Part shown: piece by piece, positions 5,895 to 36,318 of the stretch
Layout of the letters: every line of letters begins with the position of its first letter
Position numbering within the stretch: the stretch's first letter is position 1
Assembly: GCA_965242835.1 (NCBI GenBank)
Contig: OZ251506.1
Coordinates: 4,826,494-4,890,493, forward strand
DNA from: Vicinamibacterales bacterium
Lineage (GTDB): Bacteria > Acidobacteriota > Vicinamibacteria > Vicinamibacterales > UBA8438
Length of the DNA: 64,000 bases
Reading direction: 5' to 3'
Translations under genes and position numbers: made by a program
Notes under the pieces: model-generated
What the model was told of the DNA's origin: nothing
Databases searched by the model: none
The model's input: the letters and a program-made list of their open reading frames with translations, nothing else

Positions 5895-5907
5895 CCGGGG
5901 CCGGCGG

Positions 5908-7104
5908 TCAGCGCGGGTCGCCGGCGTCCCGCGCGGCGCGCTCCAGCACCGCGCGCGTCCGGGCCGCGGCCGCCGCCCAGTCGAAGGCGCGCGCCCGTTC
6001 GCGCCCGCGCGCGCCGAGCCGGGCGCGCAGGGAGGCGTCCCCGGCCAGCTCGGCCAGCGCCCGCCTCCAGGCCGCGGCGTCGTCCGCCGGCAGGAAGACC
6101 GCGGCGTCGCCGGCGACCTCGCGGAACACGGCAAGGTCGCTCGCCAGCACGGGAACGCCGGCGGCCAGCGCCTCGACCAGCGGCAGGCCGAAGCCCTCGT
6201 AGAGTGACGGACAGACGACGGCCAGCGCCCGGCGGTAGAGCGCCGCCAGCGCGTCGTCGTCGACGTAGCCCGGGTGACGCAGCCAACCGGCCGCCTCGGC
6301 GGCGGCGAACGCCTCGTGCAGCCCGCCGCTCTTCCATCCCCGCCGGCCGCACAGCACCAGCGCCGGCGCCGCCGGGTCCTCGGCCGTCCACGCTTCCCAG
6401 ACGCGCAGCAGGAGTTCGATGTTCTTGCGCGGCTCGACGGTGCCGACGTGCAGCACGTAGCGCTCGGGAGCCCAGGCCGGCAACCCGGCTCCCGGCCGTC
6501 CCGACAGGCGCCCCGGACCGTGGGGAATCGCCGTCACCCGCGCCGGGTCCAGCGGTTCGGCGGCCAGCAGCTCGTCACGCACCGCCCGCGACACGGTGAC
6601 CACTTCCCGGGCGCGGGCCAGGGTGCGGTGGAAGTGCGCATCGAGCGCGGCGCGGGTCTCCTCGCGGACCGTCCCCGGCAGGCGGCGGAAGGCGAGGTCG
6701 TGGACCGTCGCCACCACCGCTCCGCGGGCCAGCCGGAACGTCCGCGGCAGGATGAAGTTCGGCGCGAAGAGGACCGCGTTGCGATGGCCGGCGACGACCA
6801 GCGGCTCGATCGCCCGCAACGCGCGCAGCACGACGCGCCGGCGGCCCCACCCGCCGGGCGGCGGCGCCGCCGGGACCCGCTCGACGGCCGGGCCGGAGGG
6901 GAGCTCGACCACCGGACCCGGAGCGTCCGGATCGGGAAAGAGCGTCGGGCCGTAGAGCCGCAGCCGCAGCCCCTCGGCGTCGGCCAGATGCCGCAGCAGC
7001 TCGAAGAGGTACCAGCCCACGCCGGTCAGCGGCTCCCAGAAGGCGGCGGCGTCGACGGCGACGGTCAGGCGGCCGTCCGGCGCGGGCTCGGCCGTAGCGC
7101 ACAA
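5908..7104 (-). CDS. Glycosyltransferase family 4 (GT-B fold)
   Basis: 'EGFGLPLVEALAAGVPVLASD' E-x7-E region. GT homology begins near 'RLTVAVDAAAFWEP'. In-frame TTG at 7104 is proposed; the track ORF extends to 7242 over an intergenic-looking repeat array. Confidence 0.7.
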   Translation of the reverse strand: MCATAEPAPDGRLTVAVDAAAFWEPLTGVGWYLFELLRHLADAEGLRLRLYGPTLFPDPDAPGPVVELPSGPAVERVPAAPPPGGWGRRRVVLRALRAIEPLVVAGHRNAVLFAPNFILPRTFRLARGAVVATVHDLAFRRLPGTVREETRAALDAHFHRTLARAREVVTVSRAVRDELLAAEPLDPARVTAIPHGPGRLSGRPGAGLPAWAPERYVLHVGTVEPRKNIELLLRVWEAWTAEDPAAPALVLCGRRGWKSGGLHEAFAAAEAAGWLRHPGYVDDDALAALYRRALAVVCPSLYEGFGLPLVEALAAGVPVLASDLAVFREVAGDAAVFLPADDAAAWRRALAELAGDASLRARLGARGRERARAFDWAAAAARTRAVLERAARDAGDPR

Positions 7105-22995: not shown

Positions 22996-23190
22996 CACCT
23001 TCGACGACGACAGGGCGCGTGAAGCGGCCGAAACCGTCGGCGCGGTCCTGGCGGGTTGAAGATGGCGGCGCCGACACCGCGGGACTTCGCCGCCGGGCCG
23101 TGGAAAACCGCCTGCTACGACCGCTGCAAGCCGTCGACCCGCGGGACGGCAAGACCGGCCCGCGGACGGTCTTCCTCAACCGGCAGGCCC
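22996..23190 (+). pseudogene. Remnant of the tyrosine-recombinase pair (3' end of one gene, 5' end of the next, internal deletion)
   Basis: 22996-23140 matches the rc of ~28405-28548 ('[29 protein letters not shown]' vs '[29 protein letters not shown]'). It then jumps to '[16 protein letters not shown]', which lies ~135 codons further into the intact gene. Confidence 0.8.
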
Positions 23191-23322
23191 GGGAGCGGAT
23201 GTGTCGTGCGCACGGTGGGTCGGCGGACGGACGGTGCATCCGGCGACGCAGGGCGCGGGCAGGCGCGGCGCCGACGCGCGCGGACGGCACGGATCCGCCC
23301 GGACCTGGCCCGCGGCAACCCC

Positions 23323-23528
23323 GCGTATCGCGTGTAAACCGCCATGCCGGGGCCGATGGCCGCCTGCGCCAGGTCGACCGGCGCGACGTTGCCGGTCTGC
23401 AGCAGCCGCAGCGCCGGGGGGAGCTCCGCGCGGAGGGCGGTGACGCACTCGCGGCGCGTGGCCGCCGGGGCGTCCGCGGGACGGCGGCGGCAGACGAGGA
23501 CGATGGAGGAGGCGAGGGCGTTGGTGCC
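23323..23528 (-). repeat. Inverted-repeat arm B1 (206 bp near methyltransferase 3' region)
   Basis: Matches 32809-33014 in inverted orientation with a few mismatches ('[66 protein letters not shown]'). Confidence 0.9.
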
Positions 23529-24239
23529 TATTGCTACGGATCGGCTTTCAAGTTCTGTTCGCACAGGCCACGTGCCGGTGATGGCGAAACCCGACCGGAT
23601 CACCGCATCGAGAAACGTCTCCCATCCGGTGCTCGACGTACCGGTGTCGCCTTGCCGTTCCGACTGCTTGAAGGCGTAGTAGACAGTGACCGGAAACCCC
23701 GGGTGCACCTGTTGAGCAAGGCGCTTCATCACCCGTGTCATGCCGTCGAGGAAGAAGGCTTCGGCGGTTTCCTTGCTGCCATGGCGGTACGGAGTGGCCA
23801 CCAGCTCTTCGGACTTGGGGACTGCGAGCGTGGCGAACAGCTCGGGAAATACTGGTTTCAGCGACCGGCGGAGCCATACGTAGAAGAAGTCCGACAAGTC
23901 TGCGTAACCTATGTTGTCGTAGTATGGAGGATCAGTTGAACGAACAGCCACCAAATTCGACGTCTGTCGGGCATCAGCTTGCTCAATCTGTACTCGTATA
24001 TCGACCCGTCCAAGATCAGAAAGTGCTGTCACTATAGTGTCCACGGCGGTTGTTACGTCGCCAAATGCGCCAGCGAATGTATTTGGCTCGGCGAAGCTCC
24101 ATACCATCGGTATCGCCTGTCGCCCAAAGAGCCTAAGAACCCGTGCGTGCGAGTCCTGCCATCGACAAAGGCTGTTGCAGGTATCGGTCGTCCGACTGAC
24201 GGCCAACGCCAGATACAGGGCGACCGCGTCGGCATACGC

Positions 24240-24660
24240 CGCCGCGCCCGCGCCGCCGTCGCGCAACGGGCGGGCGTCATCGGTCAGGCCGGCGGCGTCG
24301 GCGGTCGCCGCGTCGTCGCTGTCGCGCAGCGACCGGGCGGCGTCGTCAGGAAGCCCCGCGCCCGCGCCGCTGTCGCGCTGGCGTCGGGCGTCGTCGGTCA
24401 GGCCGGCGTCCGCTTCGGCGCCGCCATCGCGCAGCGACCGGGCGTCGTCCGGCTGGCGGGCGGTCGCCGCGTCGTCGCTGTCGCCGCCGTCGCGCAGCAA
24501 CCGGGTGGCATCAGGAAGCCCCGCGCCCGCGTCGCTGTCGCGCTGGCGTCGGGCGTCGTCGGTCAGGCCGGCGTCCGCTTCGGCGCCGCTCTTGCGCGAC
24601 GGCCGGTCGTCGTCAGGAAGCCCGCTGCCGCGGGCGCGCTCGACAGCCGCGGCGTCGGCG
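24240..24660 (-). repeat. Intragenic acidic/Arg tandem repeat in disabled methyltransferase copy
   Basis: Encodes '[81 protein letters not shown]...'. Long internal direct repeats are visible in the DNA. Confidence 0.8.
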
Positions 24661-24864
24661 CGCCGCTGTTGCGCCTGCTCGTATGCCGCGGCGGCGTCGC
24701 GGCGGACGCGCTCGGCCGCCTCTCCCACCAGGTCGGAGAAGGTCGTCAGGGCGACGAGCTGGCGCGGGGTGAAGAGGTCGCCCCAAGCAGACAACCCGTA
24801 CGGCACGCAGGTCCCGCCTGTCAGCCGCGCCGGAACATCGCCTTCAGGCCGCCACTCCGGAACG

Positions 24865-26205
24865 GCGCTCCGCGCGATCTCTTCCTGCTCCGGGCTCGGC
24901 GTCAGATAGACCCGCCCGCGGTCACCCTCCGCCACGACCGCCATCAGCCGCGCGCCCATCCTCTTCGCCTGCCCCTCCGCCTTGACGTAGTCGCCCGCGA
25001 TCGGCGTGCCCGACATCACGCAGCGGAAGTTCGCCCCCCGCGCCAGCTTCGTCCCCGCCTTCGCCGCCTCCGCGTCCGGCGGCGCGCCTGCCTTCACCGC
25101 GAACCGGTACCCCCGCCCTTCGATCACCGGCTCGACGTACGCCTCCTTCCCCTTCTTCGTCGACAGCATGAACGTCGACGCCAGCGGCACGTCCACGCCC
25201 GCGAACGCCGGGTTCGGACTCTTCACCGTCCGCGCCCACAGCCACGCGATGACCGTCAGCTTCCGCCCCGCGTACGGCGCGAGGTCAGGCCGCTCCCGCA
25301 CCATCTCCGGCGTGACTTCCACCTTCGGATACAGATGCCCGATGCGCTTCTCCGCCTCGTCCCGCATCCACCGGCCGTAGCGCCGCACGTCCTCGGCCAG
25401 CCCTTGCGCGCCGCGCCACGTCCTGTCGACCAGCGTCGCCTCCGCCCGCGCGTCGGGGTGCGCCGGCGGCCGGCCCGCGAAGCGCGGCGGGACCTCGATC
25501 ATCGCCTTGTTGATCAGCACCGCCACCGGGTTCAGGTCGCTCGCGTGCGCCTCCAGGCCCAACCGTTGCGCTTCGAGCGGCAGCGAGCCTCCGCCCGCGA
25601 ACGGGTCGTGGAAGGCGGGCAGCCGGTGCCGGTCGAACAGCTCGGCCGCCCGTGGGTGATCGGAGTGCACGGCGCAGGCCCGGCGCCAGCTTTGCCAGAT
25701 CTCCCGCCGCGCCCGTTCGAGCACCTTCTCGTTGGTCGTGTTCTCCCACTTCACCAAGTCCCGGACGATCCCGAACAGCCGCTCGCGTTCGATCTCCGCC
25801 GCCGCCTCGCCCAGGGCCCGCAGGTCGGCCGCCTTACGCCGCCCCGGCGGCCGTTCCGCCGTCACGCGGCCGGGCGAGCGGGCGGGTGCGAACGGCGGCG
25901 GTACCCGCGACGACGCCGCGTCCGCCGGCGCGGCGCCGGCGGACGCGGCGTCCCCCGGCCCGCTTCTTCAGCGCCCGGCGCGCCACGCGCTTCTTCGCCG
26001 GGTCCGACAGCAGCACGTCGACGTACTCCGACGGGTCGTCGACCAGTTGCGCGAAGATCACCGCCCGCGCCGCCGCCAGCGGGCGGCGCGCCCACCACAG
26101 GTGCAGCGTCGACGGATGCCCGTGGCGGATCGACTTCTCCCGCGCCGACGCCGCGTTGACGGCGTCGAGCGGCAGCGCCACTTCGATCAGCTTCCGGCGC
26201 GCGCG
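24865..26205 (-). repeat. Inverted-repeat arm A1 (5' ~1.3 kb of methyltransferase gene)
   Basis: Near-identical to 30087-31439 in inverted orientation, except for a variable patch at ~25800-25990. Track ORFs 24922..25245 and 25006..25380 are 100% identical in protein to 31059..31382 and 30924..31298. Confidence 0.9.
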
Positions 26206-26216
26206 GGTCCCGGGCA

Positions 26217-26417
26217 TCACGCTCCTGGCTCAAGCAACGGCTCGGTCACCGTCAGGAACGGAACGTGATGAAGACGGACGTCGCGGGCGCAGACCAAGCT
26301 CATGCCGTGTTCGCGCACCAGCACGGCGGCGTGCACGTCATCCATCACGTTGCCGCGCGAGTCCGACAGTGCCACCAGGGTCCGCGGCAGCACCGCCGCG
26401 GGCCCCGGCGTCGCCAC
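26217..26417 (-). pseudogene. C-terminal fragment of a PIN-domain (VapC-like) toxin gene
   Basis: 'GNVMDDVHAAVLVREHGMSLVCARDVRLHHVPFLTVTEPL' resembles the VapC C-terminus '..GN.v.DahlAalA.ehg..L.t.D.dF.rfpgL....PL'. The N-terminal two-thirds are absent. Confidence 0.4.
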
Positions 26418-26781
26418 CAGGAGCTTGAACCCCGGCGAAGTCGCCGCCGGGGCTGTTCGGCGGCTGGTCCCTGGCTTCGATCCAGCGCGTGCGGAACAGC
26501 CATACGGTCGTCAACAAGTACCCGGCCAGGGCGAACCCGTGCGCCAGGGTGTTGGCCGCCGGCGCGATCCGTTCGATGGCGACGTACGAAACCACGTGAC
26601 CGGACTGAACCAGGACGAGCAGGGCCGCCGGCCAGAGCTGCCGGCCACTCAACTGCCCGAAGGTTTCCGGTTTGAGCAGCCACGCGAAGGTGGTCAGCGT
26701 GATGGCAAGAAGGATGTAGATCTGCGGGGGCGCGAGCGAAGCGCCGAGCACGGGAATCGCGGGAGAAGCGTCAGGCGGCAT
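26338..26781 (-). CDS. Multi-pass membrane protein (hypothetical), AT-richer cassette gene 2
   Basis: 3-4 hydrophobic helices ('IYILLAITLTTFAWLL', 'LWPAALLVLVQSGHVVSYVAI', 'LAHGFALAGYLLTTVWLF'). The C-terminal tail reads into the VapC fragment region. Overlaps the upstream gene by 11 nt. Confidence 0.5.
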   Translation of the reverse strand: MPPDASPAIPVLGASLAPPQIYILLAITLTTFAWLLKPETFGQLSGRQLWPAALLVLVQSGHVVSYVAIERIAPAANTLAHGFALAGYLLTTVWLFRTRWIEARDQPPNSPGGDFAGVQAPGGDAGARGGAAADPGGTVGLARQRDG

Positions 26782-27337
26782 GGCGCTCGAAATCGTCGAA
26801 GTACCGCCGAAGCGCCAGGGGACGGCTGTCCCGATGACGAGAGAGTGCGTTCGTGCAGTCGATCATCCTTCGGTTCCGAATCGTCCTTCCATGCTCGTGG
26901 CAGGACACGTACGCCTTCCGGCCGTCGACGATCTTGTAGTGGACCCGGCTCGGGTCGGCGCGGCGCTGACGGACGCGCACGTTCGGATACGAAGCGAGCT
27001 CTTTCTCGAACAGAGTCTCCCCCGTCCGCTTGTTCAACACGCAATCGACCCTGAAATCCGGATTGGAACGGATCTTCGCCTCCATCGCGCGCACCACGTC
27101 CCGGCTCTGATACAGCGAACCGGCATCCGTGTCCCCGTCGTCGTACATCACGATCTCCTTCGTCGCTTCGTTCAGGAGATCCAGGAAGATCCGTTGCGCC
27201 TCATCGTTGCTGTTGGGAGCCATCGGCGTCACGCGAGTCCGTGACACCTCGACCGCGTCTCGCAGCCAGGGGATGCTGACGAGTCCCGCGGTCAGGATCA
27301 GAAGGACGTTGACCGCCGGCCCGATCATGCTCTCCAC
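26771..27337 (-). CDS. N-terminally membrane-anchored protein with possible PLD/Nuc-like (HxK) domain, AT-richer cassette gene 1
   Basis: TM 'GPAVNVLLILTAGLVSIPWL'. 'IFLDLLNEATKEIVMY...DVVRAMEAKIRSNPDFRVDCVL...RVHYKIVDGRKAYVS' resembles a single HKD-type unit, but the K-to-D spacing is shorter than canonical. Confidence 0.45.
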   Translation of the reverse strand: MESMIGPAVNVLLILTAGLVSIPWLRDAVEVSRTRVTPMAPNSNDEAQRIFLDLLNEATKEIVMYDDGDTDAGSLYQSRDVVRAMEAKIRSNPDFRVDCVLNKRTGETLFEKELASYPNVRVRQRRADPSRVHYKIVDGRKAYVSCHEHGRTIRNRRMIDCTNALSRHRDSRPLALRRYFDDFERHAA

Positions 27338-27493
27338 GCAGAACCTCCATGTCGGTTGTCGTTTTTCTCTACTTGCGAGACTTGAACGGCTTCACCGTCG
27401 GAACCCGACCGGCTGATCATAGGAGTACGGCTTTCCCGGTGCAACAACATCTTGTTGTGTCCGCCTGCAGAAGCGGCACAAGATATAGGGTGT

Positions 27494-27575
27494 GATGATG
27501 AACGGCTTTCCGTTGGCCGCGGCCTCCACAAGGCGCGAGAGGTGTCTTCGCTTCGTGCATGTTCACGATGCGCAT
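27494..27575 (-). pseudogene. Phd/YefM-type antitoxin 5' fragment (frameshifted, truncated)
   Basis: rc reads ATGCGCATCGTGAACATGCACGAAGCGAAGACACCTCTCGCGCCTTGTGGAGGCCGCGGCCAACGG... This parallels 29558-29641 but is 2 nt shorter, and homology ends at the AT-richer cassette. Confidence 0.6.
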
Positions 27576-27609
27576 GACAGTTCCGGACTTGCGCGCCGGC
27601 GGCGTCCCG

Positions 27610-28494
27610 TCAAGTCCCGCCGGCCAGCGCCGCCGCCAGACCGGTCCCGATCCGCTCGGCCGCCGCCTCGGTCTCGCCGTCGCTGACGTGCGCGTAGCGC
27701 AGGGTCATCCGCTCCCGGGCGTGGCCGAGCAGGCGCGCGACCACCGGCAGGGTGATGCCCTGCAACACGGCATGGCTCGCGAACGTGTGGCGCAGGTCGT
27801 GCAGGCGCGCGTCCTCGATCCCGGCCTGCCGGCGCGCCTTGCGCCAGAGGGAGAGTTCGGCGGAGCGCGGCGCCGACGGGTCGGCCGGCGACGGAAAGAC
27901 GTGCGGACCGCCGGTTCGCGGCTGGTCCGCGAGGACGGCCCGGGCCTGCCGGTTCAGGAAGACCGTCCGCGGGCCGGTCTTGCCGTCCCGCAGATGCAGC
28001 GCGTCCTTCTCCACCTCCGACCAGCGCAGGTTCACGATCTCGCTCTTCCGGCACCCCGTCAACAGCAGCAGACGAATGACGTCCACCTGTTGCCGGCCGG
28101 ACCCCCGGCCGCGATGCGCGTCCAGGGCCGCGTGCAGGCGGCCGACCTCGGCCCGCGACAGGAAACGGGTCGGCTTCGGACGCCGGTTGCGCGTCACGCC
28201 GCGCGTCGGATTGCGGGCGAGATGGCCGCACGCGACGGCGTGGTTCAGGATCTGCCGCAACACGTCCAGCGTCCGGTTGGCGCCGCCCGCGGAGGTACGG
28301 CTGTAGCGGTCGAACCACCGATGCACCGCCGCCGGGCGTATCCGATCCAGCGGGCGCGCTCCGAACGCGGGAAGCAGTTGCGTCCGCAGCGCGCCGTCCA
28401 TGCGCTTGCGGGTCGACGGCTTGCAGCGGTCGTAGCAGGCGGTTTTCCACGGCCCGGCGACGAAGTCCCGCAGTGTCGGCGCCGCCATCTTCAA
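27610..28494 (-). CDS. Tyrosine recombinase/integrase (XerC/D-like)
   Basis: 'LLLLTGCRKSEI', 'ARLHDLRHTFASHAV', 'LLGHARERMTLRYAHV' (R...H-x-x-R...Y catalytic pattern). Confidence 0.85.
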   Translation of the reverse strand: MKMAAPTLRDFVAGPWKTACYDRCKPSTRKRMDGALRTQLLPAFGARPLDRIRPAAVHRWFDRYSRTSAGGANRTLDVLRQILNHAVACGHLARNPTRGVTRNRRPKPTRFLSRAEVGRLHAALDAHRGRGSGRQQVDVIRLLLLTGCRKSEIVNLRWSEVEKDALHLRDGKTGPRTVFLNRQARAVLADQPRTGGPHVFPSPADPSAPRSAELSLWRKARRQAGIEDARLHDLRHTFASHAVLQGITLPVVARLLGHARERMTLRYAHVSDGETEAAAERIGTGLAAALAGGT

Positions 28495-29369
28495 CCCTCC
28501 AGGACCGCGCCGACGGTTTCGGCCGCTTCACGCGCCCTGTCGTCGGCGAAGTGGACGTACTTGAGGGTGGTCGCCGGGTCGCGGTGTCCCAGCAGGCGGC
28601 CGATGATCGGCACCGTCTCGCCCTGCCCCAGCGCGAAGCTCGCGAAGCTGTGGCGGAGGTCGTGCAGCCGGACGCCGGGCAGGTCCGCCGCCGCCCGGAG
28701 GGGGCGCCAGCAGCCGTACAAGGACTCCGTCGACAGGCAGTCCGCGCCCGTCGACGCGGGGAAGACCCAGCGGCTCGTCCGCGGCAGACCGTCGAGCACC
28801 AGGCGGGCGGCCGACGAGAGCCAGACCGTGCGCGGGCCGGTCTTGCTGTCGGGCAGGAACAGGTGGTGCTCGCGATAGTCCGCCCAGCGCAGCGTCCGGA
28901 TCTCGCTCTGGCGACAGCCGGTCAGCAGCAACAGGCGGACCGCCGCCACGGGCAGCGGCGCCCCGGCCTCGCGCGCGGCCAGCGCCGCGCCCAGGCGGCG
29001 GATCTCTTCGTGCGTCAGGAACCGCTCCCGGCCCGGCGTCCGGTAGCGCCGGAGACCCGTGCACGGGTTGCTGTCCTCGGGCCGATGGCCGTAGATCTCG
29101 GCCTGACGCAGGATGACCGACAGGACCGGTAGCGACCGGTTCGCCGCGGCCGGCGTCGCGTGCAGCGAGGCGAACCAGCGCCGCACGTCCGCGCGCGTGA
29201 TCCCGGTGACGGGGCGTCCGCGGAACCACGGCATGATCCGGCTGCGCAGGTAGGACCGGTTCACCATGAGGGTTCGGGCCTTCCAGCGGCGCGCGTAGCG
29301 GTGGAAGACCTCCTCGGCGACCGTTTCGAACAGTACGTCCCGGCGTCCTTTCGTCGATGGTCCATGCAT
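28491..29369 (-). CDS. Tyrosine recombinase/integrase (XerC/D-like), overlaps downstream recombinase by 4 nt
   Basis: 'LLLLTGCRQSEI', 'VRLHDLRHSFASFAL', 'LLGHRDPATTLKYVHF'. Confidence 0.85.
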   Translation of the reverse strand: MHGPSTKGRRDVLFETVAEEVFHRYARRWKARTLMVNRSYLRSRIMPWFRGRPVTGITRADVRRWFASLHATPAAANRSLPVLSVILRQAEIYGHRPEDSNPCTGLRRYRTPGRERFLTHEEIRRLGAALAAREAGAPLPVAAVRLLLLTGCRQSEIRTLRWADYREHHLFLPDSKTGPRTVWLSSAARLVLDGLPRTSRWVFPASTGADCLSTESLYGCWRPLRAAADLPGVRLHDLRHSFASFALGQGETVPIIGRLLGHRDPATTLKYVHFADDRAREAAETVGAVLEG

Positions 29370-29557
29370 CCGCCGAGTTTGCGCCGAACCCGGGGCGGAG
29401 ATGCCGCCTGTTCACCCTCCGCATGCGTCTCGACTGCGCCGTGCTAGCATATTGAAAGCAACCGCGGCGAACGTCGTCCGACGATGCCCGGCGCCTCCTG
29501 TCGCGTCGGATCGACCTGCACGCGCCGCGCGTTCGGCGCTGGTGAACGGGGGCTCTC

Positions 29558-29803
29558 ATGCACGTCGTGAACATGCACGAAGCGAAAACACACCTCTCGC
29601 GCCTTGTGGAGGCCGCGGCAAACGGAGAACCGTTCATCATCGCGCGCGCGGGCAAGCCGGTCGTCAAGGTCGTGGCGGTGGACGCGCCGCCGCCGGGTGT
29701 CTCCCGCCGACTCGGGTTTCTGGCCGGACGGATCTCGGTCCCGAGCGATTTCGACCGCCTGGGCGCCGACGACGTCGAAACGCTGTTCGAAGGCGGCGCA
29801 TGA
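29558..29803 (+). CDS. Phd/YefM-family type II antitoxin
   Basis: 'MHVVNMHEAKTHLSRLVEAAANGEPFIIARAGKPVVKVV'. Its stop overlaps the downstream ATG (ATGA). Confidence 0.8.
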   Translation: MHVVNMHEAKTHLSRLVEAAANGEPFIIARAGKPVVKVVAVDAPPPGVSRRLGFLAGRISVPSDFDRLGADDVETLFEGGA

Positions 29804-30060
29804 AGCTGCTGCTCGACACGCACGTGCTGCTCTGGGCGGCCGGCGCCCCGGATCGGTTGCCGGCCGACGTGCGCACGCTGCTGGAAGACGCGGAGCTGGC
29901 CGTGACCGGCGCGCATGCGGTGGCCGTCGACCTGCTGCCGCCCCTGCACCGCGACCCGTTCGATCGCATCCTGATCGTGCAGGCGCAGATCGAAGGAATC
30001 GTGCTTCTGACGGCGGATGCGGCAATCGCCCGCTATCCGGGGCCGATCCGTGCGATCTGA
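29800..30060 (+). CDS. PIN-domain VapC-like toxin, unusually short (86 aa)
   Basis: 'MKLLLDTHVLLWAAGAPDRL...' and 'LPPLHRDPFDRILIVQAQIEGIVLLTADAAIARYPGP'. The central helical segment expected in this family seems to be missing. Confidence 0.6.
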   Translation: MKLLLDTHVLLWAAGAPDRLPADVRTLLEDAELAVTGAHAVAVDLLPPLHRDPFDRILIVQAQIEGIVLLTADAAIARYPGPIRAI

Positions 30061-30078
30061 ACCTCCTCGCGAACCCCG

Positions 30079-33000
30079 ATGCTCAACGCGCGCCGGAAGC
30101 TGATCGAAGTCGCGTTGCCGCTCGACGCCGTCAACGCGGCGTCGGCGCGGGAGAAGTCGATCCGCCACGGGCATCCGTCGACGCTGCACCTGTGGTGGGC
30201 GCGCCGCCCGCTGGCGGCGGCGCGGGCGGTGCTCTTCGCGCAACTGGTCGACGACCCGTCGGAGTACGTCGACGTGCTGCTGTCGGACCCGGCGAAGAAG
30301 CGCGCGGCGCGGCGGGCGCTGAAGAAGCGGGCCGGGGGACCCGCGTCCGCCGGCGCGGGGCCGGCGACGACGGGCGGCGCCGCTACGGGGAACGGCGGGG
30401 GAACCGCCGCCGTTCGCACCCGCCCGCTCGCCCAGCCGCGTGGCGGCAGGGCCGCAGCCGGGGCGGCGAAGGCGGCCGGCCGGCGGGCCCTGGACGAGAT
30501 GGCGGCGGAGATCGAACGCGAGCGGCTGTTCGGGATCATCCGGGACCTGGTGAAGTGGGAGAACACGACCAACGAGAAGGTGCTCGAACGGGCGCGGCGG
30601 GAGATCTGGCAAAGCTGGCGCCGGGCCTGCGCCGTGCACTCCGATCACCCACGGGCGGCCGAGCTGTTCGACCGGCACCGGCTGCCCGCCTTCCACGACC
30701 CGTTCGCGGGCGGAGGCTCGCTGCCGCTCGAAGCGCAACGGTTGGGCCTGGAGGCGCACGCGAGCGACCTGAACCCGGTGGCGGTGCTGATCAACAAGGC
30801 GATGATCGAGGTCCCGCCGCGCTTCGCGGGCCGGCCGCCGGCGCACCCCGACGCGCGGGCGGAGGCGACGCTGGTCGACAGGACGTGGCGCGGCGCGCAA
30901 GGGCTGGCCGAGGACGTGCGGCGCTACGGCCGGTGGATGCGGGACGAGGCGGAGAAGCGCATCGGGCATCTGTATCCGAAGGTGGAAGTCACGCCGGAGA
31001 TGGTGCGGGAGCGGCCTGACCTCGCGCCGTACGCGGGGCGGAAGCTGACGGTCATCGCGTGGCTGTGGGCGCGGACGGTGAAGAGTCCGAACCCGGCGTT
31101 CGCGGGCGTGGACGTGCCGCTGGCGTCGACGTTCATGCTGTCGACGAAGAAGGGGAAGGAGGCGTACGTCGAGCCGGTGATCGAAGGGCGGGGGTACCGG
31201 TTCGCGGTGAAGGCAGGCGCGCCGCCGGACGCGGAGGCGGCGAAGGCGGGGACGAAGCTGGCGCGGGGGGCGAACTTCCGCTGCGTGATGTCGGGCACGC
31301 CGATCGCGGGCGACTACGTCAAGGCGGAGGGGCAGGCGAAGAGGATGGGCGCGCGGCTGATGGCGGTCGTGGCGGAGGGTGACCGCGGGCGGGTCTATCT
31401 GACGCCGAGCCCGGAGCAGGAAGAGATCGCGCGGAGCGCAATTCCCCAGTGGCAGCCGGAGCAGTCGTTGCCGGACGATCCACGAAACTTCTGGACGGTA
31501 CTGTACGGCCTGAAGACCTATAGCGACCTCTTCACCCCGCGCCAGCTCGTCGCCCTGACGACCTTCTCCGATCTGGTGTCGGAGGCGGCCGAGCGCGTCC
31601 GCCGCGACGCCGCGGCGGCATACGAACAAGCGCAACAGCGGCCCGCCGACGACGCGGCTGTCGAGCGCGTCCGCCGCCGCGGCGGGCTTCCTGACGACCG
31701 TCGCGCAAGAGCGGCCGAAGCGGACGCCGGCCTGACCGACGACGCCCGACGCCAGCGCGACAGCGACGCGGGGCTTCCTGGCAACGCCCGGTCGCTGCGC
31801 GATGGCGGCGACAGCGACAGCGACGCGGCGACCGCCCGCCTGCCGGGCGACGCCCGGTCGCTGCGCCACGGTGACGCCGCGGCGGACGCCGGCCTGACCG
31901 ACGACGCCCGACGCCAGCGCGACAGCGACGCGGGGCTTCCTGGCAACGCCCGGTCGCTGCGCGATGGCGACGCCGCGGCGGGCGCGGGCCTGCCGAACGA
32001 GGGCCGGTTGCTGCGCGACAGCGACGACGCGGCGACCGCCGACGCCGCCGGCCTGACCGATGACGCCCGCCCGTTGCGCGACGGCGGCGCGGGCGCGGCG
32101 GCGTATGCCGACGCGGTCGCCCTGTATCTGGTGCTGGCTGTGAGCCGATCGTCAAGCATGTGGTCGTCCAACTGTTGGTGGCAATCCAACGGCGAATTTG
32201 TTGCTCAGGTGTTTACGAGGCAAGCCATTCCGATGGTGTGGGATTATGCGGAGAGTAACATCTTTTCAACATCCACTGGGAATTGGATCAACGCCATTGA
32301 GTGGATTGCGAGAGTCATGGAGAAACTGCCAACGCAGGGCATCGGCACCGCCAAACAAGAAGCTGCTCAGGTTCAGGCCAGCGGTAGTGGAAGATTGGTG
32401 TCAACCGATCCACCCTACTATGACAACGTCGGATACGCTGACCTGTCAGATTTCTACTATGTATGGCAACGACGTACAACCCGCAATGTGCTTCCTGATC
32501 TTTTTGCCACGGTCGCCGTGCCCAAGGCCGATGAATTGGTAGCGACGCCGTATCGCCACGGTGGCAGAGATGGGGCTGATGCATTCTTTCTCAATGGCAT
32601 GATGAACGCTTTGCATCGGCTTGCAGAGCAAGTGCATCCCGGGTTCCCGGTCACCGTCTACTACGCCTTCAAGCAGTCGGAAAACAAAGGAGGCATTGGA
32701 ACCGCCAGTACAGGCTGGGAGACGTTCTTGGACGCCGTGATCCGATCTGGGTTCGCAATTTCCGGTACGTGGCCCATGCGAACTGAAAGACCAACAGGTG
32801 TGAAAGTCGGCACCAACGCCCTCGCCTCCTCCATCGTCCTCGTCTGCCGCCGCCGCCCCGCGGACGCCCCGGCGGCCACCCGCCGCGAGTGCGTGACGGT
32901 CCTCCGCGCGGAGCTCCCCCCGGCGCTGCGGCTGCTGCAGACCGGCAACGTCGCGCCGGTCGATCTGGCGCAGGCGGCCATCGGCCCCGGCATGGCGGTT

Positions 33001-33606
33001 TACACGCGATACGCCCGCGTCCTCGACGCCGCCGGCGCCGCCATGTCGGTGCGCGAGGCGCTGGCGCTGATCAACCAGATTCTCGACGAGGTGCTCGCCG
33101 AACAGGAGGGCGACTTCGACGCCGACAGCCGGTGGGCGCTCGCCTGGTTCGAGCAGCACGGCTTCGACGAGGGCGGCTACGGCGTCGCCGAGACCCTGTC
33201 GACGGCCAAGAACACCAGCGTCGCCGGGATGGAGGAAGCGGGCATCCTGAAGTCGCGGGCGGGGCAGGTGCGGCTGCTGCGCCCGCGGGAACTGCCGGCC
33301 GACTGGGACCCGGAGAGCGACGCGCGGCGGACCGTGTGGGAGACGGTCCACCATCTCGTCCGGGTGCTGGAGACCGGCGGCGAGCAGGCGGCGGCGGCGC
33401 TGGTCCGCAAGCTGAGCGACCGGGGCGAAGCCGCCCGCGAGCTGTGCTACCGGCTGTATACGCTGTGCGAACGCAAGAAGCGCCCCGCCGAGGCGCTCGC
33501 CTACAACGGGCTGGTGCAGAGCTGGCGCGAGATCGGCCGCCTCGCCGCGGCCACGCCCGCCGAACAGGGCGGGCTGCTGGACGAACCGCCCGAAGCGGCG
33601 CCCTGA
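30079..33606 (+). CDS. DUF1156-like N6-adenine/N4-cytosine DNA methyltransferase, intact copy (1175 aa)
   Basis: '[46 protein letters not shown]' N-terminal domain. AdoMet motif '[14 protein letters not shown]'. Catalytic '[18 protein letters not shown]'. Confidence 0.85.
30087..31439 (+). repeat. Inverted-repeat arm A2
   Basis: Partner of 24865-26205 (see above). Confidence 0.9.
31684..32095 (+). repeat. Intragenic acidic/Arg tandem repeat in intact methyltransferase
   Basis: An 88-nt perfect direct repeat at 31722-31809 and 31884-31971 (162-nt period). Encodes '[28 protein letters not shown]' units plus related '[11 protein letters not shown]', '[11 protein letters not shown]', '[11 protein letters not shown]'. 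Confidence 0.9.
32809..33014 (+). repeat. Inverted-repeat arm B2
   Basis: Partner of 23323-23528. Confidence 0.9.
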
Positions 33607-33710: not shown

Positions 33711-34724
33711 ATGCTTGAGAGCATCATGGGTGCGAAATCGACCCCTCAACTCGCGGAGGCTCCGGGCCCGGAGCGGTCGCCGGCCCCCGCTGCCAATGAC
33801 GGTCTGCGGGGCGTTTCGGCTGACGGCGACCGAAAACCGATGTGCGATCCACGGGAAGTCTCCGCAAGGATAGCACCGTTGCTCGACCGCCTGAGGGAAG
33901 CACGGAACCGCCCCCTTTTCACTCTGGTTGCGGAGCAAATCGACGGCGAGGTCTGGAACCAGGTCTATTCGTGGAAACACGAACTGCGGGCGGCTGGGAA
34001 AGCCGGAACGGTCGACGTCCTGATTCATTCACCGGGCGGCGTCCTCACGCCTTGTTACATGATCGCTCGTTTTCTGGCCCGGTGCGTGGATTCGTGGACC
34101 GCGCTCGTTCCGACGTTGGCAGCCAGCGGGGCGACGCTGGTCACGCTCGGCTCCCACGAAATCATCATGTCACAAGGAGCGCAGCTAGGTCCATTGGATC
34201 CGCAGGTAATCAGCAAGCGTCCGCAGAAATTCTTCACGACCGAACGCCAATCGCCTCTCGAGGCGCTTGAACTCGTGAACTACGCTCGAGAACTCACTTT
34301 CTCCTCCATGGACACTTCGATGCAGGAACTCCTGAGTCAGGGCGTCGCCCCGCAACGCGCACTGGAGAACTCCATCGAGATCGCCACGCGTGTCGCCCGT
34401 CCGCTTCTGGAACGGATCGAACCGTACGACTTGGCCGCGTTGCGACTCGACAGCCGCCTCGCGCTGCTATATTGCGAGCGCGTGTCTCGTCCGACTGATT
34501 CTTCGAAGAAGACTCAACGGGAAGCGAACTACCGAGACCTGGTGGAGTACTTCCCCGCGCACGAATTCGCAATCGATATCGCGGAAGCCGGCGACGGCTT
34601 GAAATTCAACGTTTCTGAACCTGAAGGGGAAATTGAAGGTATCTTCGATGCGCTCCGCCCCGAGCTGGAACGCTCTCGCGCGTACATCGGACTCGTCCCG
34701 TCGAACCCGGCACACAGGAGTTGA
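33711..34724 (+). CDS. SDH-family (ClpP/SppA-fold) serine proteinase
   Basis: 'VDVLIHSPGGVLTPCYMIARFL...ALVPTLAASGATLVTLGSHEIIMSQGAQLGPLDPQV' matches my recollection of the serine dehydrogenase proteinase family core. An alternative ATG at 33840 is possible. Confidence 0.65.
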   Translation: MLESIMGAKSTPQLAEAPGPERSPAPAANDGLRGVSADGDRKPMCDPREVSARIAPLLDRLREARNRPLFTLVAEQIDGEVWNQVYSWKHELRAAGKAGTVDVLIHSPGGVLTPCYMIARFLARCVDSWTALVPTLAASGATLVTLGSHEIIMSQGAQLGPLDPQVISKRPQKFFTTERQSPLEALELVNYARELTFSSMDTSMQELLSQGVAPQRALENSIEIATRVARPLLERIEPYDLAALRLDSRLALLYCERVSRPTDSSKKTQREANYRDLVEYFPAHEFAIDIAEAGDGLKFNVSEPEGEIEGIFDALRPELERSRAYIGLVPSNPAHRS

Positions 34725-34728
34725 CACG

Positions 34729-34965
34729 ATGAGTTCTCCAAACGAGAGACCGAGGTTCGAGTCTATCGAACACAAGCCGGATGACGTCGACGTTCGGGAT
34801 CTCATTCAGCGGTCTGACCGACGCGCGCGGAGAATATTCGAAGAGCATGTCGAGCGCCCGCTTTTCCCCTACTCGGGACACCGAGACGGACGCGACAGGG
34901 CGTTCACGTCAACGCCGGGAGTCATCCCCAAGCAACCGCGCAACAGACCCTTACGGTCGGTCTGA
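34729..34965 (+). CDS. Small hypothetical protein (78 aa)
   Basis: ATG at 34729 lies 9 nt after CAGGAG and 5 nt after the protease stop. No recognisable motif. Competes with an overlapping frame (34781..). Confidence 0.3.
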   Translation: MSSPNERPRFESIEHKPDDVDVRDLIQRSDRRARRIFEEHVERPLFPYSGHRDGRDRAFTSTPGVIPKQPRNRPLRSV

Positions 34966-34972
34966 ACGCCCC

Positions 34973-35626
34973 TTGCCCGGACGTTTCGTCTTTCTGGAGC
35001 TCACCGACCCGGAGGTCGCTTCGCTGTTGCGCCGCATGCAGTGGATCCTGTCCGGCGTGGAGCCGCGGCGGCCGGTTCACCTGACGTTGCGGGGACCGTA
35101 CCGGCGGGACGTCCCGCCCGGGGTTCTGAAGAACCTTCGCGCCGCGTTGCAGGGTGACGTGCTGCGCGTCGCCGGCGTCGGGCGATTCCGGAACCGCAAC
35201 GAGGAGGTCGTGTTTCTTCGCGTCGATAGTCCGAATCTTCGCAAGGTCTGGTGGAAGCCGAGCTATCCGATCAAGGATCACGGCTACGCGCCGCATATTT
35301 CGCTCTACCGGGGGGGCGACGCCCGGTTCGCCCGCCGCGCGGCCGATTTCCTGGAGCGCGAAGCGCTGGACCTGACCTGCGCCGAGTACGAATTGACCGT
35401 GCATCGGCGCGGGACGCTGCCGTTCGCGAATCCGGCGCGGGCGTTCCACTCCGCGGAACCGTCCGGCGGCCGCGGACGTTTCGATTCCCTGCTCGAACGC
35501 CTCGGCCGTTTCGTGGACGCCTACCGTGGTTCGCCGGCCGACGACGCCGCGGCGCGGGCCGGGCCGAAGGCGCAGGAGGACAAACGCCCGGCGCCGAGCC
35601 GCAAGGAGCCGGCAATCGTGCGCTGA
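34973..35626 (+). CDS. 2H phosphoesterase superfamily (LigT/cyclic phosphodiesterase-like) protein
   Basis: Two H-x-T/S-x motifs in strand context about 90 aa apart: 'PVHLTLRGPY' and 'APHISLYRGG'. The start is uncertain; TTG at 34973 is proposed, and the track ORF begins at 34781. Confidence 0.55.
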   Translation: MPGRFVFLELTDPEVASLLRRMQWILSGVEPRRPVHLTLRGPYRRDVPPGVLKNLRAALQGDVLRVAGVGRFRNRNEEVVFLRVDSPNLRKVWWKPSYPIKDHGYAPHISLYRGGDARFARRAADFLEREALDLTCAEYELTVHRRGTLPFANPARAFHSAEPSGGRGRFDSLLERLGRFVDAYRGSPADDAAARAGPKAQEDKRPAPSRKEPAIVR

Positions 35627-35832
35627 AGCCGGCAGCGACGGCAGGCCTTCGCCTGCCGGGATCCGGCCGGCGCCTCAGCCTTTGATCACGAACGATTATA
35701 CCCCGTGACGTTGTTCGATCGACTGTGACCGTCGCCCGGCGAAGCCGGGGACCAGACGTGATGTACACTGCGGTGGAGAGGCGCCGCGCGGCCCGACGAG
35801 CAGGGTCGATGCGGATCAGGAGGAGGCCGGCC

Positions 35833-36318
35833 ATGGTCAGCCCCGAGACGCGCGAAGCAATCTGGATCGCGATGATGCACAGCGCCCGGTGGGGACGGTA
35901 CTACGGCGCCCTCGCGAACCGGTATCGCCGGAAGGAGCGGGTCGTCCGCGCGGCGCTGCTCGCCTCCGTGATGGGCTCCGTCACGACGTTCGTCGCGGCG
36001 CTGCCGCCGCTCGTGCAGGCCGTTTTCGGCGTGCTGGTCGCCGGCGTGCTGATCGCGGACTTCGTCCTCCGGCCGGCGGAGAACGCTACGCTGCTCGGCC
36101 TGATCCGGGACGAATGCGACCAGTCGAAGGGTGCGCTGAAGGAGTTGTGGCTGGACGTCCCGTCCATCGACGACGCGGAGGCGCGGCGCCGCCTCGACGA
36201 ACTGAACCGGCGGCTGCACCACGTGACCTCGAAGGACCCGATACCGGAAGACGAGCGCGTGAACCTGGCGTCCACCGAGGCCGTGTACGAGGAAATGAAG
36301 GCGGGTTATGTCTCCTAG
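35833..36318 (+). CDS. SLATT-like two-transmembrane protein (putative membrane effector)
   Basis: ATG at 35833 with AGGAGG 6-7 nt upstream. N-terminal amphipathic helix 'REAIWIAMMHSARWGRYYGALANRYRRKERVVR'. Two TM helices 'AALLASVMGSVTTFVAAL' and 'AVFGVLVAGVLIADFVL'. C-terminal coiled helix. Confidence 0.5.
   Translation: MVSPETREAIWIAMMHSARWGRYYGALANRYRRKERVVRAALLASVMGSVTTFVAALPPLVQAVFGVLVAGVLIADFVLRPAENATLLGLIRDECDQSKGALKELWLDVPSIDDAEARRRLDELNRRLHHVTSKDPIPEDERVNLASTEAVYEEMKAGYVS

Follow-up and report, generated by a model that had tools for sequence, protein, structure and literature searches.

A putative recombination-driven allele-switching locus for an HmaB/DUF1156 methyltransferase in a Vicinamibacterales bacterium

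In Type I hsdS shufflons, such as the pneumococcal SpnD39III/ivr locus with PsrA and that of Bacteroides fragilis, inverted repeats inside the coding sequence bracket two variable modules, and silent partial copies and a nearby resident tyrosine recombinase accompany combinatorial alleles of a specificity subunit that is a polypeptide of its own and has two target-recognition domains. In the BREX type 1 system of Lacticaseibacillus rhamnosus, nested inversions swap the middle of pglX, which encodes a single-polypeptide N6-adenine methyltransferase (Milman et al. 2023, PMC9881135), and programmed gene-altering inversions were also described for Class 1 DISARM DrmMI and Cj0031-like Type IIG enzymes in the same report, the main text of which mentions neither DUF1156 nor DUF499. 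Hma (PADLOC; Payne 2021, PMC8565338) is also known as the DUF499-centred BREX-related (BR) systems (10.1101/2025.10.09.681413). Both published accounts of Hma/BR are silent on invertases and on inverted pairs of methyltransferase genes; integrases close to hma loci were read as mobility markers, and the DNA methylation activity and specificity of HmaB are without experimental demonstration in the literature (PMC11232893). The original prediction, made from one genome, proposed cassette swapping between two inverted methyltransferase copies and was not aware of a description of this for the family. We found no report of inversion switching for DUF1156/Hma in the searchable literature; the swap principle itself is already published for PglX, DrmMI and Type IIG enzymes (PMC9881135), and what is new is the DUF1156/Hma family and the two-recombinase twist.

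We analyzed a 64-kb stretch of a Vicinamibacterales genome, referred to here as the window, whose relevant features are listed in Table 1. The predicted intact gene, copy A, carries a DUF1156 N-terminus (Pfam E value of 1.4e-26) and matches the PADLOC HmaB profile over its full length with 1495 bits, whereas the PglX profile reaches only 13 bits. Motif I (DPFAGGG) lies at aa 207 and motif IV (DPPY) at aa 777. The second copy, B, is present on the minus strand in inverted orientation as predicted, although its homology to A starts at 26203 instead of 26220 and runs down to 23323. Because of indels in the low-complexity linker, copy B is split into two ORFs, 25834..26220 (128 aa) and 23115..25865 (916 aa); the disabling indels and a TAA stop lie at about 25834-25950. 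From a GTG at 25865, at the end of the linker and just upstream of the conserved core of arm 1, the 916-aa frame is open through arm 2. Copy B ends precisely after residue 979 (A numbering) and has no C-terminal tail. It had been described as disabled at both ends, and both the 5′ frameshift and the 3′ cut are real, but we rejected random decay as the cause of the latter, as four of five relatives with paired copies (L001, L007, L011, L053) have a second copy ending at residue 979 or within about 17 residues of it (L001_Y).

Table 1. Features of the methyltransferase locus, with positions in the window
Feature	Position	Strand	Remarks
Expressed copy A, intact HmaB/DUF1156 N6-adenine methyltransferase (putative)	30079..33606	+	1175 aa; open frame and family matches
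Arm 1 of A	30087..31439	+	indel-rich linker 30340-30470; perfect-match stretch 30548-31439
V1A, variable block 1	31440..31522	+	aa 454-482
Middle arm of A	31523..32130	+	expanded in-frame tandem repeats at about 31700-32130
V2A, variable block 2	32131..32808	+	aa 685-910; carries DPPY; low GC3 (0.59)
Arm 2 of A	32809..33014	+	aa 911-979
C-terminal tail of A	33015..33606	+	aa 980-1175; one copy only, both here and in all paired relatives that keep the tail; absent from L005
Arm 1 of B	24865..26203	-	disabling indels and TAA stop in linker
V1B, alternative block 1	24782..24864	-	
Middle arm of B	24210..24781	-	tandem repeats at 24250-24614
V2B, alternative block 2	23529..24209	-	open frame; 59% protein identity to V2A
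Arm 2 of B	23323..23528	-	end of copy B
RecD, tyrosine recombinase	27610..28494	-	motifs TGCRK, KTGPR, HDLRH, LLGH and RYAH all seen by eye
RecU, tyrosine recombinase	28491..29369	-	44% identical to RecD
phd-family antitoxin gene	29558..29803	+	right inverted-repeat copy (29553-29641) is made up of its first ~85 bp
Remnant of phd gene 5′ end	27494..27580	-	left inverted-repeat copy around the recombinases
Shortened PIN toxin gene	29800..30060	+	86 aa; directly upstream of A
PIN toxin gene remnant	26235..26438	-	C-terminal half; a short way upstream of B
Two ORFs of unknown function	26341..27337	-	147 aa (hydrophobic by eye) and 188 aa; inserted on the B side
Recombinase fragment	22999..23193	+	end of RecU and start of RecD joined to mid-RecD; 97-98% identical

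Both of the inverted arms that had been predicted were found, together with a middle arm (31523-32130 vs 24781-24210) that had been missed. The stretch of at least 459 bp of complete identity extends to a perfect inverted match of 892 bp within arm 1 (30548-31439 vs 25756-24865), which rules out a chance match and shows recent exchange between the copies. The middle arms are 84-96% identical, with a 122-bp perfect run and in-frame tandem repeats, and the 206-nt arm 2 is 97% identical. The predicted divergence between the arms was confirmed, not as a single stretch but as two blocks around the middle arm, V1 (83 bp in both copies) and V2 (about 680 bp), to which divergence is confined. These blocks coincide with the hypervariable regions of the family, marked by entropy peaks at aa 451-480 and 691-780. 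They are placed between motifs I and IV, where a nested target-recognition domain was described in such enzymes (10.1101/2025.10.09.681413), and both blocks probably determine or modulate which DNA sequence is methylated; the quality of a structure model was too low for placing them. Near-identical inverted repeats of about 1 kb assemble with difficulty, and a mis-joined or falsely duplicated repeat could mimic such an arrangement. We consider such an artefact extremely improbable, given that B has its own V1B and V2B sequences and its own flanks and that the independently assembled chromosome-level genomes L053, L011 and L007 show the same layout.

Our preferred explanation, to which we assign a probability of roughly 0.6, is a shufflon-type locus in which recombination switches alleles of the methyltransferase belonging to an Hma (DUF499-centred BREX-related) defence system. 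Copy A, with the sole C-terminal tail, would be the expression copy, and B would act as a silent store of the alternative V1 and V2. The recombinase genes separate the two copies, which face each other head to head, and the three homogenised inverted arms would serve as crossover substrates. Crossover in the middle arm or in arm 2 would invert the intervening DNA and join the 5′ part of B to the 3′ part of A. Since the linker of B is frameshifted, this one-inversion intermediate would be OFF here, and a productive switch in this genome would need a second, nested inversion across arm 1 that restores the 5′ end of A. The product would be an intact V1B/V2A, V1A/V2B or V1B/V2B chimera, so that two swappable modules could give up to four alleles. 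In support of this, all five recombinants constructed in silico translated into intact ORFs of 1163-1176 aa.

Such a locus would resemble that of PglX in several respects: a defence-system N6-adenine methyltransferase made as one polypeptide is encoded by a full-length gene, accompanied by an incomplete copy in inverted orientation, by inverted repeats within the gene and by a nearby tyrosine recombinase, the termini are constant while the middle part is swapped, and two nested inversions are required, with a non-functional intermediate. In contrast to PglX, the enzyme belongs to another family with a DUF1156 N-terminus, motif I before motif IV and a reported nested target-recognition domain; the system is Hma/BR, with an orphan methyltransferase; two abutting recombinases are found instead of one; two blocks appear separately swappable; and switching is predicted here from assembled sequence. 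The layout also recalls hsdS shufflons, with the difference that here the catalytic polypeptide itself contains the blocks, and catalytic motif IV falls within V2. As with DrmMI and the Cj0031-like enzymes, inversions would alter a large single-chain methyltransferase of a defence locus, although those methyltransferase families are unrelated and their partner genes are others.

The architecture recurs in related genomes. Orthologues of RecU and RecD, 70-81% identical, adjoin DUF1156 methyltransferases in Vicinamibacterales (L053/L002, L011, L005, L052), Binatia (L007), Thermoanaerobaculia (L006) and at L001, and five of these loci (L001, L005, L007, L011, L053) contain two inverted methyltransferase copies. 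The paired design occurs in four long-read genome assemblies (Vicinamibacterales, Binatia) and the IS-damaged L005. The tail is single-copy in the other four, and an arm 1–V1–middle arm–V2–arm 2 mosaic was found in five genomes. Within genomes, the two copies of arm 1 are 99, 94, 98, 97, 96 and 82% identical, compared with 73-88% between genomes, and those of arm 2 are 97, 100, 100, 90 and 84% identical, whereas V2 is 60-68% identical within genomes, the same as between them. This pattern is one of concerted evolution, in which the arms appear homogenised within each genome and the V blocks stay diverged. Three of five silent copies are fully open, and the other two carry a single frameshift. 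Cassettes are also common to different genomes (100% identity for L001_Y and L005_X, 85% for L001_X and L053_B). Moreover, between the close relatives L001 and L005, whose flanks are collinear, the segment 16819-19061 of L001 (V2, arm 2 and 1.16 kb) is inverted and joined to the 5′ part of the other copy in L005, with the crossover in the middle arm. Recurrence, concerted arms, mostly open silent copies, this inversion, the intact chimeras and the hypervariability of V1 and V2 support the cassette-swapping reading, and these sequence comparisons lead us to infer switching in the present genome as well. None of 80 metagenomic HmaB loci contained an inverted pair with recombinases; short-read contigs break at such repeats.

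The two predicted overlapping recombinase genes lie between the copies, abutting or overlapping by up to 4 nt depending on the start codon. Both proteins match Phage_integrase and are catalytically complete by residues; in RecU, R153, K176, H236, R239, H262 and Y271 are invariant among orthologues. The abutting pair is the likely invertase, and RecU and RecD may act as a heteromer analogous to XerC/XerD. Like XerC/XerD pairs and recombinase-in-trio (RIT) elements, they are adjacent paralogous tyrosine recombinase genes, presumably cooperating; the likeness to XerC/XerD is an analogy, and that to RIT elements, which have three genes instead of two, concerns gene arrangement. Linkage alone does not prove an invertase role, because the closest wider relatives of the pair, in Alphaproteobacteria, are compact, selfish two-recombinase elements that are mobile and multi-copy, have no long terminal inverted repeats and carry no methyltransferase. 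An inverted duplication could instead be kept alike by RecA-dependent recombination and gene conversion next to resident recombinases, domesticated or formerly selfish, that do not catalyse the exchange; cassettes may still be swapped then, just not in a programmed way. We consider this rather unlikely. Arms of 206-1350 bp with up to 100% identity are good RecA substrates and could recombine through it, no core site or conserved DNA motif specific to the paired loci was detected in our search, and arm 2 of L001 is 100% identical between copies even though RecD of L001 is internally deleted. There is also a precedent in hsdS, as rearrangement at the pneumococcal spnIII locus was reportedly independent of known site-specific recombinases (PMC6620402). 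However, RecU and RecD are linked to the methyltransferase pair in Vicinamibacterales, Thermoanaerobaculia and Binatia, are intact in six of eight loci, and diverge much as the methyltransferases do. The ~400-bp leader found in the alphaproteobacterial element is missing from the Group-1 pairs, suggesting that these are not complete mobile units, and the recurrent end of the silent copy near residue 979 suggests a selected design.

The locus in this genome is partly eroded. The frameshift at the 5′ end of B, the shortened PIN gene (146 aa at the matching position in relatives) and the recombinase fragment, which lies 130 bp past the end of B and inverted relative to the intact pair, indicate that it may be decaying. 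The predicted absence of DUF499 ATPase and helicase partners extends over the whole 64-kb window, in which we found neither the HmaA helicase-nuclease nor the HmaC ATPase and no DUF499, SNF2 or AAA_21 gene; although A is a full-length HmaB homologue, it is an orphan here. In relatives L053, L005, L007, L006 and L136, a HEPN-DUF499 ATPase, an SNF2 helicase-nuclease or both adjoin the methyltransferase. These losses, the stop in the linker of B, the mere phd and PIN remnants on the B side, and similar erosion in L005 (IS66-like insertion, tail lost) and the degenerate L052 would fit a fossil, in which a former switching or duplicated defence locus has become an orphan methyltransferase and a pseudogene, with no exchange or function. 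We regard this as distinctly unlikely, as A, RecU and RecD are all intact, B retains its long open frame, and the perfect 892-bp match and 99% identity of arm 1 beside blocks of ~60% identity imply very recent homogenisation.

Family searches with the 147-aa and 188-aa ORFs on the B side gave no match. The recombinases are flanked by an 89-bp inverted repeat (27494-27580 and 29553-29641); we rejected a transposon end as its identity, as the repeat is the duplicated 5′ end of the phd gene.

Gene A carries a DUF1156 domain (Pfam PF06634) at its N terminus (E = 1.4e-26), is covered over its full length by the HmaB profile (PADLOC PDLC00660; 1495 bits), and contains motif I (DPFAGGG) at residue 207 and motif IV (DPPY) at residue 777, both of which are invariant in 59 homologues. 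With all of these features present, A belongs to the HmaB family, the methyltransferases of the Hma defence system. The BREX type 1 PglX profile matched A with 13 bits only (E = 0.0043), which places A outside that family, and a PDB sequence search retrieved no solved relative. The original observation of an intact gene accompanied by an inverted second copy, B, was borne out by ORF listing, repeat finding and global alignment (see the table of features), and B was rightly described as disabled at both ends. The first ORF of B also matches PF06634 (E = 2.8e-28); the copy is disrupted by indels and a TAA stop within a low-complexity linker (A 30340-30470) and ends after residue 979, so that the last 196 residues, here called the tail, are missing. 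Downstream of the linker, B keeps a single open frame of 916 aa that reaches arm 2.

Features of the methyltransferase locus, in window coordinates
Feature	Position	Strand or location	Remarks
A, intact methyltransferase gene, 1175 aa	30079..33606	+	ORF listing, repeat finding, global alignment
B, second copy, inverted vs A	26203 down to 23323	-	ORF listing, repeat finding, global alignment
Arm 1	A 30087-31439 vs B 26203-24865	inverted	alignment
V1	A 31440-31522 vs B 24864-24782		83 bp in each copy
Middle arm	A 31523-32130 vs B 24781-24210	inverted	84-96% identical, 122-bp perfect run
V2	A 32131-32808 vs B 24209-23529		59% protein identity; DPPY inside
Arm 2	A 32809-33014 vs B 23528-23323	inverted	alignment
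RecD, tyrosine recombinase	27610..28494	between copies	catalytic motifs kept
RecU, tyrosine recombinase	28491..29369	between copies	abuts RecD; catalytic motifs kept
phd-family antitoxin gene	29558-29803	upstream of A	
Shortened PIN toxin gene, 86 aa	29800-30060	upstream of A	146 aa in relatives
PIN remnant	26438-26235	just upstream of B	C-terminal half only
Recombinase fragment, 195 bp	22999-23193	+	matches segments of RecU and RecD at 97-98% identity

Both of the repeat arms originally proposed were found where they had been placed, and a third, middle arm had been missed; because this arm is shared as well, the divergence between A and B is confined to two blocks, V1 and V2. Within arm 1, where a stretch of at least 459 bp had been expected to be fully identical, the longest perfect inverted match extends over 892 bp (30548-31439 vs 25756-24865). 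The middle arm contains in-frame tandem repeats (A 31700-32130, B 24250-24614) with a spacing of roughly 42-66 nt (periods 54/96/165 by TRF), which code for roughly seven or eight GLxDDxRxLRDGx-like peptide units; this region is much shorter in homologues, with gaps in 84-99% of them. In an alignment of the 59 homologues, entropy peaked at residues 91-135 (the linker), 451-480 (V1), 691-780 (V2 before DPPY) and 901-915. Both V1 and V2 fall within the interval that starts at motif I and reaches slightly beyond motif IV, and for this reason they plausibly set the specificity of the enzyme. An AlphaFold2 model of A built with these homologues was too poor to place the two blocks (mean pLDDT 49, pTM 0.30). 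The GC content at third codon positions (GC3) was 0.41-0.63 in the V1/V2 blocks vs 0.86-0.94 in the arms, and V2 fell below arm 1 in all related copies, including the single-copy locus L003, with the exception of L006 (0.82 vs 0.83). This low GC3, and its recurrence in relatives, suggests that the variable cassettes have been exchanged horizontally.

The closest homologue of A in the protein databases is 72% identical, and of the three homologue contexts inspected first, two displayed the same layout. A RecU alignment was then used to scan one genome per species, and the matches fell into two groups. Group 1, from Vicinamibacterales, Thermoanaerobaculia and Binatia, comprises seven loci (L053, which is the same locus as L002, L011, L005, L007, L006, L052 and L001; sequence records OZ244051.1 for L053, OZ241978.1 for L011 and OZ220487.1 for L007) in which RecU is 68-79% identical to that of the window, RecD abuts it and a DUF1156 methyltransferase gene adjoins the recombinases. 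The paired architecture seen in the window recurs as inverted copies in five of them, head to head in L053 and L011, as in the window, and tail to tail in L007, L001 and L005; that the arrangement in the window is an assembly artefact is very unlikely. Single-copy methyltransferase genes, each with a DUF499 gene, occur in L136 and L140, and L137 (10001-18550) has a pair of DUF1156 methyltransferase genes that face the same way, with NOV_C and AAA_15/21 genes between them and without a recombinase. Duplication of the methyltransferase thus also happens without the inversion layout, and, taken together, these loci indicate that the inverted pair is a minority state. In a scan of 80 metagenomic HmaB loci, neither RecU/RecD nor an inverted pair turned up, and a tandem pair was seen once; as repeats like these interrupt short-read contigs, the scan is uninformative on prevalence.

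The related loci also bear on whether alleles are exchanged. The window, L001, L007, L011 and L053 share one mosaic, in the order arm 1, V1, middle arm, V2, arm 2; in the four relatives the second copy ends no more than about 17 residues from residue 979, and only one copy of the tail (residues 980-1175) is present. Arm 1 is 99, 94, 98, 97, 96 and 82% identical within genomes and 73-88% between them, and arm 2 is 97, 100, 100, 90 and 84% identical within genomes, whereas V2 reaches only 60-68% within a genome, no higher than between genomes. Judged from these alignments, the arms evolve in concert. Similar cassettes occupy different positions in different genomes: one copy of L001 (L001_Y) equals L005_X (100%), and the other, L001_X, shares 85% identity with L053_B and 77% with L011_B. 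The silent copies L001_Y, L011_B and L053_B are fully open, and L007_B and B of the window carry one frameshift each. Furthermore, the comparison of L001 with L005, whose collinear flanks are about 95% identical, shows that a real inversion separates these close relatives. Positions 16819-19061 of L001, comprising V2, arm 2 and 1.16 kb of the neighbouring AAA_21 gene, are inverted in L005 and fused there with the 5′ portion of the other copy; the crossover falls within the middle (repeat) arm, and the tail of L005 was removed by a later IS66-like insertion and deletion. In L007 (Binatia), the genes are convergent, and 1.6 kb containing a spacer and the single tail lie between 100%-identical copies of arm 2; this segment (4516-6132) would be a compact invertible unit giving the C-terminal tail to either gene. 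Clusters at 90% protein identity contained no chimeric variants, only linker-length variants and contig-end fragments.

As originally noted, two tyrosine recombinase genes lie between the copies; both keep the catalytic motifs, and their products, RecU and RecD, share 44% identity. Because the linkage is conserved and the catalytic residues are intact, RecU and RecD likely catalyze the inversions, and they may act as a heteromer. An unlikely alternative is that RecA drives gene conversion or inversion while the recombinases are bystanders: the arms are long, arm 2 of L001 is still 100% identical despite an internally deleted RecD, and a comparison of DNA conservation between paired and unpaired loci revealed no ultra-conserved window specific to the paired ones that could mark a core recombination site. 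Returning to a recombinase-driven switch, the locus has an intact gene and a partial inverted copy, with in-gene inverted repeats around the variable segments, and recombinase genes inside the locus whose orthologues are linked to a methyltransferase in seven other loci. The locus is most likely a shufflon-type system. The predicted allele switching draws its support from comparative evidence, namely the concerted arms, the recurrent layout and the L001/L005 inversion, from which we infer it for the window genome.

In such a system, an inversion with its crossover in the middle arm, or in arm 2, would flip the core, consisting of both 5′ ends and the recombinases, and would place the 5′ part of B before the 3′ part of A. 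This one-inversion state would be OFF because the linker of B is frameshifted. A second, nested inversion across arm 1, whose 892-bp perfect stretch lies downstream of the frameshift, would restore the 5′ end of A and yield an intact chimera with V1 of B, V2 of B or both. All A/B recombinants assembled in silico were intact ORFs of 1163-1176 aa. Two blocks inside one catalytic polypeptide would give 2 x 2 alleles with OFF intermediates, and in the tail-to-tail relatives one inversion would suffice to transfer the tail, alone or together with V2 and V1, from one complete 5′ body to the other. Our full reading, to which we assign a probability of only about 0.25, is that two tyrosine recombinase genes which once formed a mobile unit were domesticated and now encode a heteromeric invertase that shuffles V1 and V2 in an Hma-family methyltransferase, which is orphan and phasevarion-like here.

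The mobile origin is suggested by Group 2, about 40 alphaproteobacterial loci (in MAGs L008-L045; for example, L031/L032/L042, 9601-12116) in which RecU is 56-68% identical to that of the window, a 250-300 bp gap precedes RecD and no methyltransferase gene is nearby. The unit is often multi-copy per genome, and since copies within one genome are 96-97% identical over about 2.4-2.5 kb, it represents a compact mobile two-recombinase unit. It looks like an unnamed mobile element of two tyrosine recombinases, and the Group 1 pair looks like its recruited relative, from which the roughly 400-bp leader of the element is missing, given that RecU of L053 starts only about 20 bp from a divergent antitoxin gene. 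The left end of the alphaproteobacterial unit bears a dyad, CACCACGGGACGCACCTGTGGTG, and no inverted repeats flanking the alphaproteobacterial copies were found. The pair was also considered as a BIM element and rejected, as BIM consists of a single recombinase plus an unrelated protein (Van Houdt 2012) and the inverted repeat in the window is a duplicated phd start missing from other loci. RIT elements differ in having three adjacent recombinase genes and flanking inverted repeats, whereas the window has two genes and its repeat is that same phd start. On the megaplasmid of Shewanella oneidensis MR-1 (L138, 3710-6207), a distant RecU relative of 44% identity is the first of an overlapping tyrosine recombinase pair that adjoins a MazF toxin-antitoxin pair. 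Recombinase pairs of this type may be a widespread class that has yet to be named.

The partner genes of an Hma system had originally been noted as absent, and neither the DUF499 ATPase gene (HmaC; tblastn with the L002 DUF499 protein) nor the SNF2 helicase-nuclease gene (HmaA) was found across the 64-kb window, nor was an AAA_21 gene. The window is without a complete Hma system, and its methyltransferase is an orphan within it. DUF499 genes are present in L005, L006, L007 and L053, and the SNF2 helicase-nuclease in L005, L007, L002 and L136. The orphan state, together with the erosion of the locus, would fit a fossil, a quite improbable reading against which the near-perfect arms argue by pointing to very recent exchange. 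For a locus that still switches, the loss of the restriction partners in this genome would leave a specificity-variable orphan methylase, and the switch would give an Acidobacteria-like soil bacterium a phasevarion-like device for epigenetic bet-hedging.

Allele switching by inversion has long been known for hsdS. A study of 2023 added the single-chain methyltransferases BREX-1 PglX, DISARM DrmMI and Cj0031-like Type IIG, and long reads demonstrated a two-nested-inversion logic for PglX of L. rhamnosus (PMC9881135); we propose the same logic for the window. DUF1156, DUF499 and Hma are not named in the main text of that study, published Hma descriptions and the BR-system survey (DUF499-centred BREX-related systems, an alias of Hma) make no mention of inverted pairs or invertases, and a search of the full-text literature on DUF1156, or on DUF499 with inversion or recombinase, retrieved nothing relevant. 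The proposed device is thus of an established kind, and what is new is the methyltransferase family and defence system in which it occurs. Its distinguishing marks are a recombinase pair with relatives in a mobile element, an orphan context in the window, and three arms around two blocks that could be swapped independently and take in the region of catalytic motif IV. If the reading is correct, inversion-based specificity switching would extend from Type I, BREX, DISARM and Type IIG to the very widespread Hma systems, reported from 26 phyla (BR systems from 3592 prokaryotic taxa), and RecU/RecD would exemplify how a selfish element of two recombinases came to serve its host. The principle would be no conceptual surprise to specialists; the value lies in natural domain swaps, as A/B chimeras would delimit residues 454-482 and 685-910 as the best candidate specificity determinants in a family whose DNA target and activity are uncharacterized (PMC11232893). 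Such loci also break short-read assemblies and confound methylome-based binning, and in annotation pipelines B would pass for a pseudogene and RecU/RecD for "integrases of a mobile element".

The surroundings bear on the origin of the locus. An 89-bp inverted repeat around the recombinases (27494-27580/29553-29641) is a duplicated phd gene start, and this repeat, together with the PIN remnant beside B, implies an ancestral inverted duplication of phd, PIN and methyltransferase residues 1-979, in which the central loop contained the recombinases. The PIN gene next to A was apparently shortened by an internal deletion, and neither side seems to have kept an active phd-PIN module. The 195-bp recombinase fragment, 130 bp past the truncated end of B, joins the RecU end/RecD start (reverse complement of 28551-28408) to mid-RecD (reverse complement of 27991-27939); it runs opposite to the intact pair, which leaves B between recombinase sequences in inverted orientation, and it points to a recent extra rearrangement. 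A promoter/terminator consensus scan of 26000-30200 gave no match. Chromosomal genes, among them those for asparagine synthase, a transglutaminase-like protein and two-component systems, occupy the window on both sides of the locus; the GC content is about 72%, and a tRNA scan found no tRNA gene within the window and hence no tRNA-linked island boundary. Downstream of A lie genes for an SDH-type Clp-like serine protease (33711-34724), a 2'-5' RNA ligase-like protein (34781-35626) and a weakly SLATT_4-like protein (35725-36318), the last two syntenic with genes that follow the full-length methyltransferase in L001; the genes in 33711-36318 may form a separate defence or accessory module.
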